A stretch of DNA of 58,706 nt, filler included, from Sphacelaria rigidula (Eukaryota): the NCBI GenBank assembly GCA_964200075.2. It is 10 parts of 10 records of this genome, joined end to end, with 100 filler letters (N's around TTAATTAATTAA, not from the genome) between each part and the next. Parts side by side here need not be neighbours in the genome. Positions count along the whole stretch, not along the records: positions 23,525 to 29,305 come from CAXNAA020024512.1; 9 more parts are not named here. One strand, 5' to 3'. The notes beneath the pieces were generated by a model, which ran no database searches, was not told the origin of the DNA, and saw nothing but the letters and a program-made list of their open reading frames with translations. This document shows, one piece after another, positions 23,525 through 49,965 of this stretch. A program made the position numbers and the translations under genes. Each line of letters begins with the position of its first letter. The first letter of the stretch is position 1.

Positions 23525-23615
23525 GAACAACCGTTGCTTCTTTCAACGACGGTTTGACTCGAAATTTCGAGCAACAAATGACCCAAAATACCCCCCCCCT
23601 CTTGTAGGATGACTC
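23525..23615. mobile_element. One end of a GAG-terminated DNA transposon (Sola2-like) inserted in Gypsy pol
   Basis: AAATACCCCCCCCCTCTTGTAGGATGACTC|AAAA is the inverted counterpart of AAAA|GAGTCATCCTACGATAGGGGGGGGGTATTT at 29225-29258. Confidence 0.75.
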
Positions 23616-23619
23616 AAAA

Positions 23620-24800
23620 TACGGGCTTTTCGGTAAGCGTCTTGAGTAATTCGTGGGTGATATTCTCCATTTCTGTGGTGGAAGAAAACACGGCTCCTTC
23701 CTTGAGTAGCTCAGTAAGGGGGCGAATCCGTTCCGATAAATTCGGCAAAACATTGCGGTAGTAGGATAGCCCACCCAACAATGAGCGAAGTCGAGAAATG
23801 TTAGTTGGCATCGGCAAATCAGTCATCGCCTTGACTTTGTTTGTATCCGGATGCAGGCTTGCTGGCGAAATGGAATACCCTGAGAAATCCAAGTCAGTCA
23901 CACCAAGGCGGGCTTTGGATGGAGACAGTTTCAAATCGGGTGTACGTAGGCGAGAGACAAATTCTCGTAGAGTGCATATATGTGCAAGAGATGAGGCGTC
24001 GAAAGCGATAGCGTCATCCAAGTACATGATGATGTGCTCGAGGCCCTCGGTGATGCGTTGCATTAAGCGTTGAAAGCATCCCGCGGCCGTGGCGGCGCCG
24101 TGTGGCATTCGAAGCCACTCATTAAGTCCGGACGAGGTACAAAAAGCCGTCAGTAGAACTGTGTCAGGGTGTATAGCATTCTGAAAAAATCCAGAAGCGA
24201 GGTCGAAGGTGCTGAATATTTTCCGTTCGCCTAAGGAGTCGAAGACTTCATCAACGCGGGGAATTGGAAGTTAACGGACTACCGTGACGCGGTTCAACCG
24301 TTGATAATTCACGGTTATGCGTATGTTTCCATCCTTTTTGGGGACGACCACAAGTGGCGAGGCCCAAGGAGAGGAGGAATGTTGGATTAGTCCCACTCCC
24401 AAATACGCATCCAAGATAGCGTTAACTTTCTCGGTGAAGATTGGGTTGGTACGGTACGGCCGAGAAGAAATCGGCGAGACACCGGGTTGGAGGGTAACCT
24501 GGACGGGCAGTGTATTGCAATGCCCAAGATCCGTCTTGGATCGGGGAAATCGGTCTTGGCACTGTAGCAGGACATCACTGAGTTCTTGGATGATTACCGG
24601 TTCCCAGCCGGGCCCATGAAGGTCAAAATTGATGTCGCGCATGTGTGGCGGCAGTTGGTTCCACATGTGCAATAAACTATTCCGAGAATCTGGTGATAAG
24701 CGTTGGAGCACTTCAGCAGGAGGATCGGAATTTGACTGCGCAGGATCCACGGTGTGGACCTGGGGTTGAGTAGCAGAGGCGAGATCGAAAAAAGGTTCAT
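23620..24800 (-). pseudogene. pol: Ty3/Gypsy reverse transcriptase with one premature stop (24271-24273)
   Basis: SPWASPLVVVPKKDG.IR...NYQRLN, FSTFDLASGFFQ, EWLRMPHG, FQRLM, YLDD and LRSLLGGLSYYR motifs, all in one frame. Confidence 0.95.
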
Positions 24801-24802
24801 CG

Positions 24803-24819
24803 TCCTACCGTCGACGCCA
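24803..24819 (-). promoter_or_regulatory. Primer-binding site, probably for tRNA-Ser
   Basis: TGGCGTCGACGGTAGGA lies one base after the LTR end ...ATTACA and is complementary to a tRNA 3' end ...UCCUACCGUCGACG-CCA. It is identical to the TRIM PBS. The Ser assignment is inferred. Confidence 0.8.
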
Positions 24820-24820
24820 A

Positions 24821-25416
24821 TGTAATAAAGAGCAGGCGGCAGTATAATGCAAGGACACAGCTTGCAACCCAAGGCACAAGCTTGGCAGGCAAGTGTACAA
24901 CCGTCAGCCTGCTACAACTTGTAGATACCGTGCGAGCTGCTCAGTATCCAAATACCAGACGAGGTTTCACGCGAATAGGTTCTTCACTTCTCTCTTGATT
25001 ATCTTGATTCTAACTCCAGTACCCACTCTATCAGTCCAATCCAATCCAATGCGTCTCACCGATAGTTAGACTTCTTTTGCTGGAAGGCAATAGAGGAGCA
25101 GTTGATAGTGCGAAGGATGGGCGAGCTATATCGGTTCCAGCCGATCTATCTCGCCATCTTTTACCAATATACAAGCTCATATCCGGACCCGACCAACTCT
25201 GAACAGACCTGCAATCTTGTATACCGGGATTCCCCATATTACCGAAAGCCAGACTTCGACAACGGGTTTGAAGCGGCATGACAACAGGCTAGTATGCATC
25301 TTTATGACAGACGAACGAATATTACAGCTGCGAGGGTTTATCCTCAAAACAGCGAAAACTACGGTTATTTTACTCGTCAAGTCATGAGCGGCGAATACAG
25401 CATATCTAAAGGAACA
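24821..25416 (-). repeat. Single LTR of the Gypsy element (5' boundary uncertain, 25416 or 25431)
   Basis: Ends ...TTTATTACA directly before the PBS. Candidate starts (TGTT) follow purine-rich tracts GGTATGGGGG or GGTACGGGAG. Confidence 0.6.
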
Positions 25417-25599
25417 CCCCCATACCTAACACTCCCGTACCAACAATCCTGTACCTACTCCCACACCTCAAAATAAGGGAAGGATAGACTGCTTCGAGGA
25501 GCAGAACAAACTACTCCGAAACGCGGAAGAACAAACTGCTTCGGTGTGCTAGCGATCAACGAAGAAGCACAAATTGCTTTGGCGCCCTAGCAAACGTTA

Positions 25600-25745
25600 A
25601 GGGGGAAAACAGGGAGGTACAACAGGGAGCAGAGCTCTGACCTGGGGGGAGCCAAAGATCCAACAGGAAGCAGAGTTTCAACCTTGGGGAAATCCAAAGG
25701 TACAGCAGGGAGCAGAGCTTCAACCTGGGGGGAATCCAGAGGAGC
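25600..25745. repeat. ~42-bp tandem repeat x3 in the 3' non-coding region
   Basis: The unit CAGGGAGCAGAGCTTCAACCTGGGGG.AATCCAAAGGTACA repeats with variation. Confidence 0.75.
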
Positions 25746-25985
25746 TAAAAACTGCAAGATCGAAAAGCTGAAAATCGGTGATCCAACGAGATCGAGCGCC
25801 AGATGAAGGGGATACAATGGCTCCAGTAGTCGTAGGTAGCGGTCGTGTCAGTAGTGTTTTATCGTCGTCCGATGTAGGTCGCGCTGTTGTGGTGTCGTGG
25901 AAGAGGATCCTGGTAGAGAAGGGAGGGTAGACAATGCGTACGGAAAAAAATAGGGGCGGGGCAACAGTCACGACAAAAGCGTGGT

Positions 25986-27071
25986 TCAAAGCGGAGCGTG
26001 GACGTCGTGGGTGTCGTCGATGTTGCGCTGGAGACCGCGGCGAAGTCCTTTGGACTTGAGGCGCTGGAGACACCAGGGTCCGCGTGGTGCAGATGGGCTG
26101 GTGGTGTATAGCGATGGCCAAAGCTTGAGCTGTATGGGTCCAGGGTCATCGATAAAGCGCACGATGTATGTGTCGGCCGAAACCAGGTTAGCGGCGTGGG
26201 TATGACCCAACCACCAGAGGTTGTCGCTACCTTTGAACCAAAGGTAGCTGCCCTTGGGCAGGAGTCGCTGGTTCGCGAAGAACTTCGTCTTACAAGTGTT
26301 GGAGGGTACAAGTTCGTAACCATCGGCGACAAAGCGTAGTCCCTGATTGCGGTGAAGTTCGCGGGCTGCTGCGCCACGACGCATGTTGCGATATTTCTTG
26401 TTGTGAGCAAGGTGCTGATGTTGGGATTGCGTCCAGTAAAGGAGGATTGCACGACGGTGCAATTGCAGGTTGGATTCGCGTTCCCAAGATGCTCTCCGAA
26501 GATCGTGCCAGTGTGCCTTGTATATGACAGCGATCTTGCCTCCTCGACCACGGGTTATCTGGTGGCCGGAAATGGAGGACACAGCCAACCGAAGGGGCTG
26601 TTCCGTCACGTCGTCGGTTGTAACGTGGCAGGGCGGGGACTTGGTCGAGTAGCTGTTGAGAACATACTGTGTGAGTCCGGCAGGCGGGTACTTGGGCATG
26701 TCGCTTGTATCATGCGGGCTCGTGCAGGGTTTGCGTCTGTGCACGGAGACGCGGGGCTTGGTGTCCTTGCCCTGGAAGTCGCGAGGCAAGTCGAGATGGA
26801 GCAGTTTGTCACCGACGAGTTTTTCATCCGATGATGATGACAATGGTCCGACTGTCAGGATCTTGAATGGTCCTGTCCAATTGAGGGACAATTTTGTCTT
26901 CAAAATTGTTTCGTTGGATGCCTTGCTGGTGCCTTCGCGGATGGTCGACAAGCTGTCGTAGATCCAAACCCAATCACCAACTTTCCAGTTAGGGCATTTG
27001 TGCATGAGGTTGTAGAGAGCAGCGTTAGATCTCTCTAGGCGCGAGGCATTGATAGCGCGTTGTTCGCGCAC
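25986..27071 (-). pseudogene. Integrase C-terminal region: GPF module, chromodomain-like segment and further extension
   Basis: KVGDWVWI...KLSLNWTGPFKIL and VSSISGHQ...IYKAHWHDLRRASWERESNL. It is separated from the integrase core by a frameshift near 27140. Confidence 0.8.
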
Positions 27072-27133
27072 GAGGGTAAACGCTTTGCGCTGTCGCGCGT
27101 GCGCTAGCTCGTTGTAGGATAGCTGGTCCTGAT

Positions 27134-28237
27134 CTAATCGTTGGTGGCCATCGAACGTGTGTTGCTCAACACGGTGATAGGCAGCCGAGGGTAGCGTCCA
27201 AGATGGAGTTCATTCGGAGGAAGGCCTGTGGCGGCATTAACCGAGTTGTTGTAGGACAACATGATGTGCGAGAGATGTAGGTCCCAGTCATTTTGGCGGT
27301 CATTGACAACCATGGCGAGCATCTGGGCCATGGTGTGATTAACGCTTTCGGTACCACCGTTACCGTTCGGGTGGTAGGCGCTCGTGGCAATTTTGCTTAT
27401 GCCCAGGAGTTTGTAAAGCTCATCAAAGAGGTCTGAACAAAATTGCTGACCATTGTCTGAAAGTAGTCGCTTTGGGCAGCCGTTGTGCTTAATGTAATCA
27501 TGGACCAGTGTGTCAGCCGTTCCGGCGGCAGTGAAATCTGCGGCGGTTACCTCGTACATGGACGCGTGGCGGCTGAGGCGGTCAGTGAAGAGTAAGATGT
27601 AGGTGTTGCCGCGACCTGTGGTAGGTAGAGGTCCGAAGTAGTCAAAGGACACAAGGTGGCCGGGCTTGTCGGGGAGTCTCATAGAGATCACGGGCCAGCG
27701 TACAGTCTGTCGTGACGTTTTTCGGGCTTGGCATGTAAAGCATCGCCGAATCCAGAAGCGGGTTGAAATTTCCATACCAACCCAACAGTAGAAGCGTTCC
27801 AAGAGCGCGAGGGTGCGGGTGACGCCAAGGTGGCATGATAAGTCTGTGTGGCAGCCTTTCATGACCCAGGGGCGCATTAATAATGGCACATACATGCGCG
27901 TCGGTTCGTCATTGAGTAGTCGTGCGTTGCGTCCCGTGGTTGAGGCGGCAATTACGCCTGTCAAGGGCGTGGGCCGACGTACGAGTACTTGCACGCCTTC
28001 ATCCGTAGTAAAAAGGGTGCCTTTACGCACGAGCTCGTATACGTCAGAGATAACTGGTGGTGGCAGTGTTCCAACCGGGGCCAGGAGAGTGGACGGAAAA
28101 GGGGCTGGACAGTCAAGTTGTAAGTACCGGATGGCTGTGCTACATAGCGGCTCTGCGTTTTGTTCACGAGCCCAATCGCGGTGAGAGTAGCTGGCGAGAA
28201 CCTCGCGTAGTTGACCTTCCGCTGGCGAGCTGACCAA
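27134..28237 (-). pseudogene. pol: Retroviral-type integrase (H2C2 zinc-binding domain and DDE core)
   Basis: HTDLSCHLGVTRT...CFTCQARK, FDYFGPLP, LSDNGQQF, YHPNGNGGTESVNHT. Confidence 0.95.
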
Positions 28238-28294
28238 ACATGGTAGGGCAGGCGGTGGGGGAATAGGCGACGGGGTAGAAATGTCGACGTCGAT

Positions 28295-29224
28295 TCATGT
28301 TCCGGGAGCTGGAGACGAGTCGTCAGTTCCGTGCTCGGGGGCAGGAGATGTTTGCGACGCCATTATAGGCGGCGGGGGTGTATCAGTGCGCAGCGACGAT
28401 TGTTGGCGGCGCGTGGCGCACGGTGCAGAAGTGTTTGCGGTCCGTGGAACTTGTGCTGGGTGGCTCATAGGGGTTACAGGTGTTGTTGGTAGCGGCGGGG
28501 CACTCGGTGTGGTGCGGGCGGCAGACCGGGAGCGCATGTTGTCGGAGATAAGGTGGGTGACTGGAGGTGTCTCCGCGAAGAGTTTCGCGCGAGTACCGAA
28601 AGTGCGAAAATCGACAAAACCAGAGGTAGTGGGCTTTAATCCGCCCAAGACAGCGTCATATGGTGGAGGGCGAGGTCCTCCCATATGCATACCGGTTTCC
28701 GGGCACTGGAGGTCGAGGGCGTAAACGGGCGTTGAAAAACGTCTGATCGCGTGAATTACGGGTTCATCGGGTTCCGTTAAACGGCAAGCTGGGCTGAGAT
28801 CTGCGGCCGTAGGCGGCAGAGGTAGGCGGGAAAGAAGATCCGCGTTCCCGTTGGATTTGCCTGGACGGTTCTTAATGGTATACTGGTATGCTGTTAGAAG
28901 CTCCAACCATCGTTGTACACGAGGGTTGTGTTCACCAACCTTGGCGAGTTGTTCAAGTGCTCCGTGATCCTATAGATCTCGAAGGGCACGTGAAACAGAT
29001 ATTGTCAAAGGCGCTTAATGGCCCAAGTGATTACTCCGCCTTCTAGTTCTAGCGGGCTCCAATTGGCCTCGTTGGGCAGGGTAGCGCGGCTGATGTAAAG
29101 GGTGGGTCGGCCATAGCCATCAACCTGAGGTTGATTCAAAACTCCTCGAAACCATTTGTGCGGGCGTCAGTATGGAGTTGGAAAAGGCGGGAGCCATCTT
29201 GTACTGCCTCCCAATCAGGAAAGC
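28295..29224 (-). pseudogene. pol: RNase H domain (frameshifted) plus Pro/Thr-rich linker
   Basis: FPDW..FQLHTDA, YISRATLPNEANWSPLELE...WAIKRL, DHGAL, RVQRWLELL..YQYTIKNRPGKSNGNADLLSRLP. Confidence 0.9.
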
Positions 29225-29228
29225 AAAA

Positions 29229-29305
29229 GAGTCATCCTACGATAGGGGGGGGGTATTTCGTTGCACGAAAAACGAGGCTTATAAGTGTGTCAGACATCCT
29301 TCCAC
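29229..29305. mobile_element. Other end of the GAG-terminated DNA transposon
   Basis: AAAA|GAGTCATCCTACGATAGGGGGGGGGTATTT interrupts pol exactly where the 23615 end does. Confidence 0.75.
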
Positions 29306-30779: not shown

Positions 30780-31970
30780 GCAAATGCCTTCTTTGCAGTC
30801 CTCTAACCCCTTGCCGAGAAACAGCAGTACTTGAACCGCAACCTAGTGCGTATCATGTAGCAGCGTTTCCGCTCGAACACTCGCTCCTTCCATCATGATT
30901 TCAGCTACAGCTCGTACCCCTACAGCGCAGCCCAGCTCGCCACCAAGCGATATGTCCACACCGCCAAACCAATGCGACAAATCCTCTTCCCCTACAGATA
31001 CATGCGCAGTACAGAACATACCTATAGTTGAGTCAGCTTTTACAGAGGGAACGAGAGGCAAAACAGGAATAACCACACAGTCCGGCACAGCAACATCTCC
31101 GGACTGCATTTCAGCATCCTCCTCGAACACCCCACTGCACAATGGCGTGGACTTCTCCGTCATCGCCGCCAACCATGCCAAAGCTGCCCGTGTAAACAGC
31201 AATGCATACTACCACCGCAACACCACGCAACGCTCCACGCCCCCCTAGCATCTGCCTCGCAGATATAATCACAAGCCTGAAGCTCGCTCTGCGTATCCGC
31301 TCACATAGGTAACACTCCATTGCTGCTTCGAGCACGCAAGGTGCGTGCCCAGCCACGCGCTGATCATCGACCGAAATGCGGTCCAGCGAATTCACATCCG
31401 CCGAGTCGGGATCCACCTCTCCTTCAAGCAGACAGGCCCGCGAATCATCTGAACAATCTCCTGCCGTATCACGGAAGCAGATAGATTTGCCACGAGCATA
31501 GCGAACCCCAAGCTCGCTCTGTATGTTCACATTACGCAAATAACCCCCCCTCCCCCTGCAGCTCAAAACACGCTGGTCGGGTGGCAAAAAGCAACCGGGA
31601 CATTCGCCTCTCATCGCTTGCTCATCGGCCCATGCAGGCCCTGCGCTTTTAATAGCAGTAGCAGCAGTAGAAAAATCAATCATACTCGCTGCAGCTGCCA
31701 CCTGTCTGCCCGCCTCGTTCCTCTGCAGCAACAACGGCAGCTGTACGGTCTTCGGCGATCTCGTATCTATCCCCTCTAACAGACATGTGCTGTGTCACCT
31801 TCTCACCCCCCTCAACAGCAGGACCAGCAGCAGCCAAACCGGCTCCTACTATTGCACCCCCAGCGGGGGCGCTGTGGTGCCTGTACCCTCGCACAGACTC
31901 ATGCTGCGTCACTCCCTCGGTGTTCACAGTGCAGGCAGCTACCCGATGTCGTTGCTTCAGACCCGGATGC
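30780..31970 (-). pseudogene. Degenerate copy of the Ala/Gly/Val-rich ORF seen at 35962-37263
   Basis: Shared peptides LKQR.R.AACTV, LLPPDQRV, DTAGD.SDDS..CLLEG.V, LFT..ALA.LAAM.E, GVFEED, LSHWFGG.DI...GEL; broken by stops and frameshifts. Confidence 0.8.
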
Positions 31971-36180: not shown

Positions 36181-37263
36181 GGGAAGGAGGCACAGCACGT
36201 GTCTATCAAAGCAGGTAGGCTTGAAGGCGCGCATGCCGACAGTACCACGGTAAGCGTTGGTTTTGATGCTGCAGGTATATCTGTTGGAAACGTAGAACAT
36301 GCCACGCAGCTCGAGCGGACTGCAGGCAGCTCAGCTGCTGCTGTTGTCGTTCAGGAGTGCGCTGAGCAGGAGGTTGCGGCTGTAGCGACTATGGGTAAAA
36401 CTGCTGCTGCTGTTGGCGATGTTGAGAAGGCGAGGCCTACATGGGCCAATGAGCAAGTACTGGTGGGCGGACCTCCCAGTTGCTTGTTGCCGCCGGACCA
36501 GCGCGTAGCTGGAGACACTTCTTGCACGCTCGAAGCTGCAGGGTGTTTTTCGCGTATTGCGAACGAGCAGGGTGAGCAAGGAGCTTGCCGTTCTCATAGT
36601 GAATCTATCTGTGCCAGTGATATGGCGGGAGATCGCTCAGATGATTCACAGGGGTGTCTGCTTGAAGGACAGGTGAATACCGGGTCGGCGGAATCGCCGC
36701 TAGAGCACTGCGGCGCCGTGGACACGCCTTGCGTGATCGAAACAACAGGGGCGTGTTACCCGCGTGAAGCAGGTACGCAGAGCGAGCTGCAAGCTCGTGA
36801 TGCTGTTAGCGATCACAATTCTGACGGCGACAACGAGCGTCACGTGGTATTGGAGTGTTCGTGTGCACTGCTGTTTACATGGACAGCTTTGGCGTATTTG
36901 GCGGCGATGGCGGAGGTGTCTCCACTGTTGCGCCGCGGGGTGTTTGAGGAGGATAGCACACCGCCATCTGGAGGTGTTGCTGTTGGGGACTGTGTAGCTG
37001 TTCCTATTTCGCCTCTAGTTTCCTCTGTAACACTGACTGAAGCACAGGTGTTCAGTACTGCCCAAGTATCTGTGGAGACAGGTGGCTTGTCGCATTGGTT
37101 CGGCGGTGCGGATATACCATTTAGTGGCGAGCTGAGCGGCTCCACGAGGGTGAGAGCTGTAGCTGGACTCATGGCGCGAGGAGCGAGTGTTCGAGTGGAA
37201 ACGCTGCTCTACGCTGTGCACGGGGTTGTGGTTCGAGTGCTGCTGTTGGATTTGTATGCATGA
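35962..37263 (+). CDS. 433-aa retroelement-associated ORF of unknown function, probably continuing the gag-like frame
   Basis: Longest open frame in the window, with a homologous degraded copy in scaffold 6. No recognisable catalytic motif. Confidence 0.5.
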   Translation: MSTRWDRHDSTPAERAVAGPRLKQRYRADACTVKAEKHVSARGDRHDSAPAQGAVGTVRLKQRYRAAIFTVQSGKEAQHVSIKAGRLEGAHADSTTVSVGFDAAGISVGNVEHATQLERTAGSSAAAVVVQECAEQEVAAVATMGKTAAAVGDVEKARPTWANEQVLVGGPPSCLLPPDQRVAGDTSCTLEAAGCFSRIANEQGEQGACRSHSESICASDMAGDRSDDSQGCLLEGQVNTGSAESPLEHCGAVDTPCVIETTGACYPREAGTQSELQARDAVSDHNSDGDNERHVVLECSCALLFTWTALAYLAAMAEVSPLLRRGVFEEDSTPPSGGVAVGDCVAVPISPLVSSVTLTEAQVFSTAQVSVETGGLSHWFGGADIPFSGELSGSTRVRAVAGLMARGASVRVETLLYAVHGVVVRVLLLDLYA

Positions 37264-49703: not shown

Positions 49704-49965
49704 TCACCTGGGTTCAGTGTGGTATCAAGTTCACGTGATTCCAGTGTGGTCACTAACTACTTGGTTTCAGTGTAGGTGATGAATACTTGGTTTCAGTATT
49801 GTCAATAACTTATAGGTTTCAGTATAACCAATAACCACTTGGATCCAGTGTTTCCAGCAACTACTTGAAGTGTTGTCCACAACAACGTGGTTTCAGTGTG
49901 ATCTACGATACTTGTATAACAACTTCGGTCTAGTGTTGCCAAAAACTACTTGGTTTTAGTGAGAT
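49704..49965 (+). repeat. Degenerate ~26-27-bp minisatellite, about 10 units
   Basis: Recurring core ACTTGGTTTCAGTGT. Confidence 0.85.

Follow-up and report, generated by a model that had tools for sequence, protein, structure and literature searches.

The window analyzed here is a stretch of 58,706 nucleotides from Sphacelaria rigidula (assembly GCA_964200075.2), consisting of ten unrelated scaffolds of 5,780-5,781 bp each with an N-spacer between them. Our subject is one of these scaffolds in its entirety (CAXNAA020024512.1, window 23525-29305, 5,781 bp), which contains no N and corresponds to contig C24512 of G000, the contig set of this genome. G000 is incomplete, and the contigs fetched from it were all longer than 5.5 kb. 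The scaffold carries a copy of a Ty3/Gypsy retrotransposon whose parts stand in circularly permuted order between two pieces of a miniature inverted-repeat transposable element (MITE). Read on the minus strand, it comprises a MITE piece, an RNase H region, integrase, a further open reading frame, a 3' untranslated region (3'UTR), a single long terminal repeat (LTR), a tRNA-like 18-mer, reverse transcriptase (RT), and the other MITE piece. This is the order described by the original prediction, and it is real in the assembly.

The pol domains, identified through Pfam and tblastn, are those of the order RT, RNase H, integrase, which is continuous in other copies of the family. The linker preceding RT and the RT domain itself (23620-24801, minus strand; PF00078, E 1.2e-14) contain one stop at 24273. 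The RNase H region and its linker (28295-29224, minus strand) were recognized by tblastn with the protein P0002, which carries PF17917; the pieces themselves have no Pfam match and are broken by a stop at 28297 and frame shifts, with 1-nt gaps in pol near 28970 and 27170. The integrase (27137-28294, minus strand) comprises an H2C2 zinc finger (PF17921, E 1.5e-12) and a core (PF00665, E 1.1e-9), and its named relatives are Ectocarpus proteins at 55-61% identity. In the frame that follows the integrase core (25986-27136, minus strand), the label of a chromodomain held only as a weak likeness of the stretch 26379-26621: Pfam gave no match to this frame, and its top four PDB matches were cpSRP43 chromodomains at E 0.17-0.52. 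The 3'UTR (25310-25985, minus strand) matches other copies, and the 489-bp LTR (25309-24821, minus strand) has TG...CA ends and differs by 5.7% from the nearest other copy. Domain order, LTR ends, and integrase identity are thus shared with the Ectocarpus-like Ty3/Gypsy elements of brown algae. The scaffold copy is instead non-autonomous, with a single LTR, a broken pol, and neither the gag-protease region nor the polypurine tract (PPT), and the scaffold includes no host flank.

Pairs of LTRs of this family on the same contig were 95.7, 86.2, and 82.2% alike (n=3). On contigs C838 and C1470 the 5' and 3' LTRs are 82% and 96% alike with unmatched flanks, and these elements are either recombined or chimerically assembled. 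A different arrangement was seen on C2766 (L135, L159), where the 3'UTR, PPT, LTR, and tRNA 18-mer are followed by a 1.9-kb stretch of the element that resumes some 5.4 kb in, with units 94-96% alike. Contig C3011 was considered as a second entire permuted unit and rejected, as its second unit stops after approximately 730 bp.

Both scaffold ends lie within the same kind of element, as the original prediction of a DNA transposon implied, and this element is a MITE that is held only in part. The scaffold starts in its last part (23525-23615, plus strand) and ends in its first part (29229-29305, plus strand), so that MITE positions 160-251 and 1-79 are present and about 80 bp are missing for closure. 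The 30-bp arms (23586-23615 and 29229-29258) are inverted repeats with 2 differences. Full copies elsewhere measure 242-257 bp, are non-coding, and have inverted ends of about 30 bp with GAG..CTC termini, which we take to be linked to Sola. Of 2709 candidates, 40 were scored and all of these were close to full length, and an exact 4-bp target duplication flanked 22 of the 30 full copies, differing in sequence in all 22. Short length, lack of coding sequence, terminal inverted repeats, target duplication, and many copies identify the element as a MITE. Unmatched flanks as a sign of recombination between MITEs proved too weak: among 8 imperfect cases, 1 shared no base and 3 shared two. The same MITE occupies at least seven other sites in this Gypsy family, some of them common to runs of two studies. 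The 4-bp duplication, a trait of Sola2 (PMC3627910), suggests that the MITE is Sola2-like, and Sola-1 and Sola-2 are present in Ectocarpus (PMC12477816). Its targets are not AT-rich, unlike those of amoebozoan Sola2 examples, and no transposase partner was identified, no search having been aimed at one.

The two ends of the scaffold also represent one insertion site. Other Gypsy copies run continuously across the point where window positions 29228 and 23616 would meet, overlapping by the 4-bp duplication (23616-23619 and 29225-29228), and all nine uninterrupted natural copies that were translated are in frame through it. The residue originally proposed for the rejoined site, F, is L in these nine copies. 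The duplicated 4-mer, AAAA, is found at the site in none of the other Gypsy copies listed for it; being private to the scaffold's Gypsy copy and present at both borders, it indicates that both ends derive from one insertion event in one lineage.

Two joints at the primer boundaries

Behind the LTR, at 24802-24819 (minus strand), lies an 18-mer that matches exactly the 3' end of tRNA-Ser(AGA) followed by CCA. It had been taken for the primer binding site (PBS) of the element; it differs from the family PBS and is a copy of the tRNA. Both of the tRNA-Ser(AGA) genes that were found lack the CCA, and the 18-mer is therefore a copy of the mature RNA. On the cloverleaf its last base is position 59, immediately short of A58, and the plus-strand strong stop of retroviruses likewise ends before A58 (PMC8599865). 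An LTR followed by 18 nt complementary to a mature tRNA, CCA included, and ending before A58 is what a plus-strand strong-stop product contains. The 18-mer is joined to the linker before RT with one base in common. In a normal element, represented by two intact copies, 8.1 kb lie between the LTR and that point of pol; they are absent here and, judging from their position, would comprise gag and protease. This joint is bridged by a contig of 98 nt (run X3, record 11) with 65 and 33 letters on either side and 0 differences; run X3 may stem from the source sample.

The family PBS was found on ten other LTRs with internal sequence behind them (11 PBS-like rows, excluding L030, which is host DNA matched by a loose pattern), and it matches the tRNA-Ser tail over the first 6 nt only. 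The exact 18-mer stands on six distinct LTRs of the family, each time followed by a different sequence, so it is not the PBS of a subfamily. The inability of the tail to pair with the family PBS explains why strand transfer would fail, and end-joining at the failed-transfer step is the model given in 10.1101/2022.09.25.509424. Failed plus-strand transfer is thus very probably the origin of the 3' joint, under every reading of the permutation. Pairing between the family PBS and tRNA-Ser beyond the first 6 nt was not supported (-17.1 kcal/mol, matched by 16% of 2000 shuffles). A cognate tRNA gene for the family PBS had no match in the incomplete G000, and a short PBS and mis-priming by a near-cognate tRNA are both possible. 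A pseudo-PBS guiding the joint was also considered, since visual comparison suggested a likeness between the pol site and the LTR end, and was rejected because its local alignment score (at most 9) was matched or exceeded at several further sites in three copies.

The second unusual joint lies on the other side of the LTR (25307-25322, minus strand). The PPT is intact in all 21 readable other 3' LTRs of the family, a count from 24 rows that leaves out the scaffold copy, one truncated row, and L029, for which an intact tract was seen elsewhere in the analysis. In the scaffold copy, the 12-nt PPT is missing up to the LTR start; a 2-nt repeat borders the gap, and 3 nt are altered at 7-9 nt upstream. 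Gaps of at least 10 nt occur at 0.19 per kb in other copies, a rough figure given that the rows overlap, and the scaffold copy has only two, the PPT gap included. We estimate the probability of a gap ending at the LTR start by chance at about 1 in 1000. In the circular intermediate, the plus strand as it grows runs into its own beginning at the PPT, so both odd joints fall at primer boundaries, and this coincidence would be the main argument for a circle. With regard to auto-integration, the 3' LTR end is not joined cleanly, the primer copy standing between, and the 5' end is the exact LTR start with the 3-nt change nearby. Reverse transcription gone wrong has left a genuine relic in the scaffold copy, and its marks are clear.

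Age and depth of the scaffold copy

Across seven segments, the scaffold copy differs by 4-8% from its nearest relative and by 6-11% from the median, and its private changes have accumulated at rates comparable to those of other copies. Its LTR keeps 12 near-private sites that have not been smoothed. Divergence at the level of its relatives, together with stops and frame shifts, indicates that the copy aged in a chromosome; from these differences it would be an old chromosomal resident, and a free circle is unlikely. Gypsy copies are about 7% apart and MITE copies are 91-94% identical to one reference copy, and the ages of the two look similar.

Read support was assessed in sequencing runs whose records are contigs, of which 32 out of approximately 29,970 were examined; no source reads were found, the best run contained a 0.38 share of the sampled words, and depth in these records is no copy number. 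Seven records without differences to the scaffold came from runs of two samples (S3, S4) of one study, possibly of one strain, and the six of them that do not span the tRNA joint were 5-10 positions away from the best other copy. The bridging X3 record had a depth of 80 and four other zero-difference X3 records 70-100, compared with a median of 66 for the 15 joints listed. Elsewhere, zero-difference depths were 28.5 in X4 (joints 12-23) and 34-56 in X5 (joints 17-63). These depths point weakly to one copy, at most two, with no sign of amplification. Among the 32 records, none covers the PPT joint or either MITE joint and none matches the LTR interior perfectly, an absence that carries no weight.

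Origin of the permuted order

The original prediction offered three explanations for the permutation, namely a tandem array amplified after insertion of the DNA transposon, a circle with one LTR that is either free or re-integrated, and an assembly path through two collapsed identical LTRs. Each of them survives in some form, and each has been altered. Our leading reading, to which we give a little less than an even chance, is a fossil sub-genomic 1-LTR circle that is now chromosomal between two copies of the MITE. Re-integration gains from the two non-family joints lying exactly at the two primer boundaries. Such a circle alone would explain the permutation, both scars, and single-copy depth with neither a mis-join nor a missing sibling. 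The scaffold is free of N and no assembly branch needs to be assumed; in the assembly, the single LTR has internal sequence on both sides, and the 3' joint is the only one of its joints bridged by an independent contig.

The proposed sequence of events begins with a strongly supported step, in which the plus strand would have copied the LTR and 18 nt of the tRNA-Ser primer and stopped before A58. The tail could pair with the family PBS over 6 nt only, so that transfer would have failed, the tail being joined inside pol with loss of the 8.1 kb. A 5.6-kb circle may then have been closed at the second priming site, where the PPT was lost, through end-joining of a circular intermediate that still had a gap or through auto-integration beside the PPT. 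The third step is conjectural: the MITE would have joined the circle to a chromosome. On the one hand, its transposase might have used two chromosomal MITE ends with the circle as target, yielding a cointegrate; on the other hand, a MITE might have jumped into the circle, followed by a single crossover with a chromosomal MITE. Both routes would leave the opened circle between two MITEs, with one 4-bp duplication at the inner borders. The final step can be read directly from the copy, which then decayed like its relatives and is incapable of moving on its own. Cointegrates of bacterial insertion sequences and plasmids offer a parallel, with a circle broken open at its target site between two transposon copies in direct orientation. 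The likeness holds if the scaffold copy was a circle; the scaffold shows the inner borders only, and a MITE of a eukaryote takes the place of the bacterial element.

Active elements in Drosophila yield mainly one-LTR circles and rearranged one-LTR circles (10.1101/2022.09.25.509424; PMC12951756), and rearranged one-LTR circles are abundant in active systems, where they are treated as dead ends (PMC12951756; PMC7197481). Those of HMS-Beagle, nomad, and SISYPHUS share with the scaffold copy one intact LTR joined to internal sequence, a permuted order, and joints tied to reverse transcription (10.1101/2022.09.25.509424; PMC12951756; PMC7197481). They are fresh extrachromosomal molecules ascribed mainly to auto-integration, whereas the scaffold copy is old, appears chromosomal, carries a full 18-nt primer copy at its joint, and is opened at a MITE. 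Searched by title and the start of the abstract, the literature yielded neither a MITE-flanked 1-LTR circle nor genomic fossils of A58 read-through, with most subscription journals and supplements outside this scope.

Several points weigh against a captured circle. Nothing was seen beyond the two MITE pieces on the scaffold, and a second case was not found. Capture of a circle by a cut-and-paste element would be a rare step with a low prior, and circular products are held not to integrate, a view repeated in PMC7197481. Scaffolds often break at the same MITE inside the same Gypsy family (C24386, C18356), which makes a pair of MITE ends unremarkable. The polymerase could have slipped at the PPT in a linear product with two LTRs as well. 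Two of the three same-contig LTR pairs lack matching flanks, which indicates that chimeric elements exist in the assembly or in the genome. Finally, LTR-sharing or partial tandems are common in the family (C3011, C4071, and C2766, or 3 of about 22 3' LTRs), which favors an old tandem.

The strongest of the rival explanations, in itself an unlikely one, is a mis-join. An ordinary-looking copy with two LTRs (LTR, 18-mer, RT, MITE, RNase H, integrase, LTR), itself a product of the failed transfer described above, would have been assembled by crossing from the 3' LTR to the 5' LTR and broken at the MITE. A single MITE would then account for both ends and for the private duplication, the pieces being its first and last parts; the single-copy interior depth that was observed is what a mis-join predicts, the assembly does contain chimeric-looking elements, and no record shown spans the LTR or the PPT joint. 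The collapse of two identical LTRs fits poorly, given that same-contig pairs of the family are 82-96% alike and that a copy as old as its relatives, whose LTR pairs are 4-18% different, should not have identical LTRs of its own. With so many similar LTRs available, the assembler would also be unlikely to land on the other LTR of the same copy, and the near-private sites of the LTR are unsmoothed. A second LTR with the private 5' start was not found in the incomplete G000, where the 3'-end pattern also matched two ordinary copies, and the loss of the PPT would remain a coincidence. Were the mis-join true, the locus would be a dead repeat of minor importance and would serve as a warning where scaffolds look permuted.

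An old tandem is a rather improbable alternative. A deleted copy with two LTRs would have gained the MITE and then been duplicated head to tail, by unequal exchange between LTRs or by re-entry of a circle into its parent, and the scaffold would be the stretch between two MITEs. LTR-sharing tandems are common in plants and flies (PMC11899658; PMC5932611); they likewise have internal sequence on both sides of one LTR, and C3011, C4071, and C2766 are of the same kind. The last of these is an assembled case in the same genome, and depth of the private stretches, at about 1-2 times the single-locus class, leaves room for two slightly diverged units. The scaffold differs from such tandems in that its PPT is lost, its PBS is replaced by a primer copy, both its ends lie in one MITE insertion site, and a second unit was not found in G000. 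Specifically, no second junction of RT with MITE or of MITE with RNase H was detected there at up to 3 mismatches in 22 nt, the six other matches having no Gypsy flank, and short siblings could be absent from the contigs fetched. No copy was closer than 4% in any of the seven segments, and homologous exchange leaves the loss of the PPT unexplained.

A recently amplified array whose identical units the assembler had collapsed would yield the same cyclic path and is very improbable, as no sibling junction is present in G000 and the private stretches, the bridging record included, have about the depth of other single-locus joints, which is weak evidence. A free circle in the sequenced DNA would require no graph branch and only one MITE, and it is scarcely credible for a copy that is 4-11% from every relative, carries stops and frame shifts, could not be regenerated now that the gag-protease region and PPT are gone, and left zero-difference private stretches in two samples of one study.

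The weights given to these readings are a matter of judgement, and the failed transfer is very probable whichever applies. If the captured circle is the right reading, the scaffold would be a natural, inherited case of retrotransposon circular DNA that came back into the genome by means of a DNA transposon, a path that is generally discounted, and the scars at both primer sites can still be read. We put forward, with rather more doubt than belief, the broader proposal that a cut-and-paste MITE captured a retrotransposon 1-LTR circle as a cointegrate, making heritable a kind of circle regarded as a dead end, and that dozens of LTR ends in this genome preserve a legible record of how primer tRNAs were modified, either as a stop before A58 or as read-through with misincorporation. 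Whatever the permutation means, the tRNA tails show failure of plus-strand transfer in vivo when primer and PBS match poorly, and they make the role of m1A58 in the retrotransposon strong stop countable from genome sequence alone.

tRNA tails elsewhere in the genome and other repeats

The tRNA 15-mer had 48 exact non-self matches in G000 (L051-L080, L141-L158), which are the two tRNA-Ser genes and 46 copies, 40 of them with the complement of CCA. Among these copies, 35 diverge directly after position 59 and 11 continue past A58 for 21-68 nt. The base opposite A58 is wrong in 10 of the 11 read-through copies (5 C, 5 A, 1 T). The pattern requires a copy to reach position 59, and some matches may be normal PBSs of other families. 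Dozens of LTR ends thus record either a stop at tRNA A58 or read-through with misincorporation, and form a fossil record of tRNA modification.

Some of these copies have further peculiarities. Near-complete reverse-transcribed copies of tRNA-Ser stand behind an apparent LTR end in L150 (2498-2581) and L144; ARAGORN names the former a tRNA-Ser(CGA) gene, yet the CCA and errors at A58 are present. At L055/L139 (C2357) and L080, the 18-mer runs into its own sequence or that of the PBS in inverted orientation, which makes a fold-back joint. At L062, L143, L151, L141, and L152, the 18-mer gives way to sequence that starts again from the LTR end, and in the first three of these loci the family PBS is included; such short duplications would be expected if strand transfer had slipped.

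Repeats were also observed on other scaffolds of the window. Positions 30820-31548 and 36541-37247, on two different scaffolds, form long inverted matches of 74-77% and are probably copies of another repeat family. The arms at 78-297 and 578-797, each of 220 bp, are 95% complementary and 280 nt apart, likely a foldback element or a MITE. Six degenerate repeats at 26-bp spacing lie at 49740-49961.

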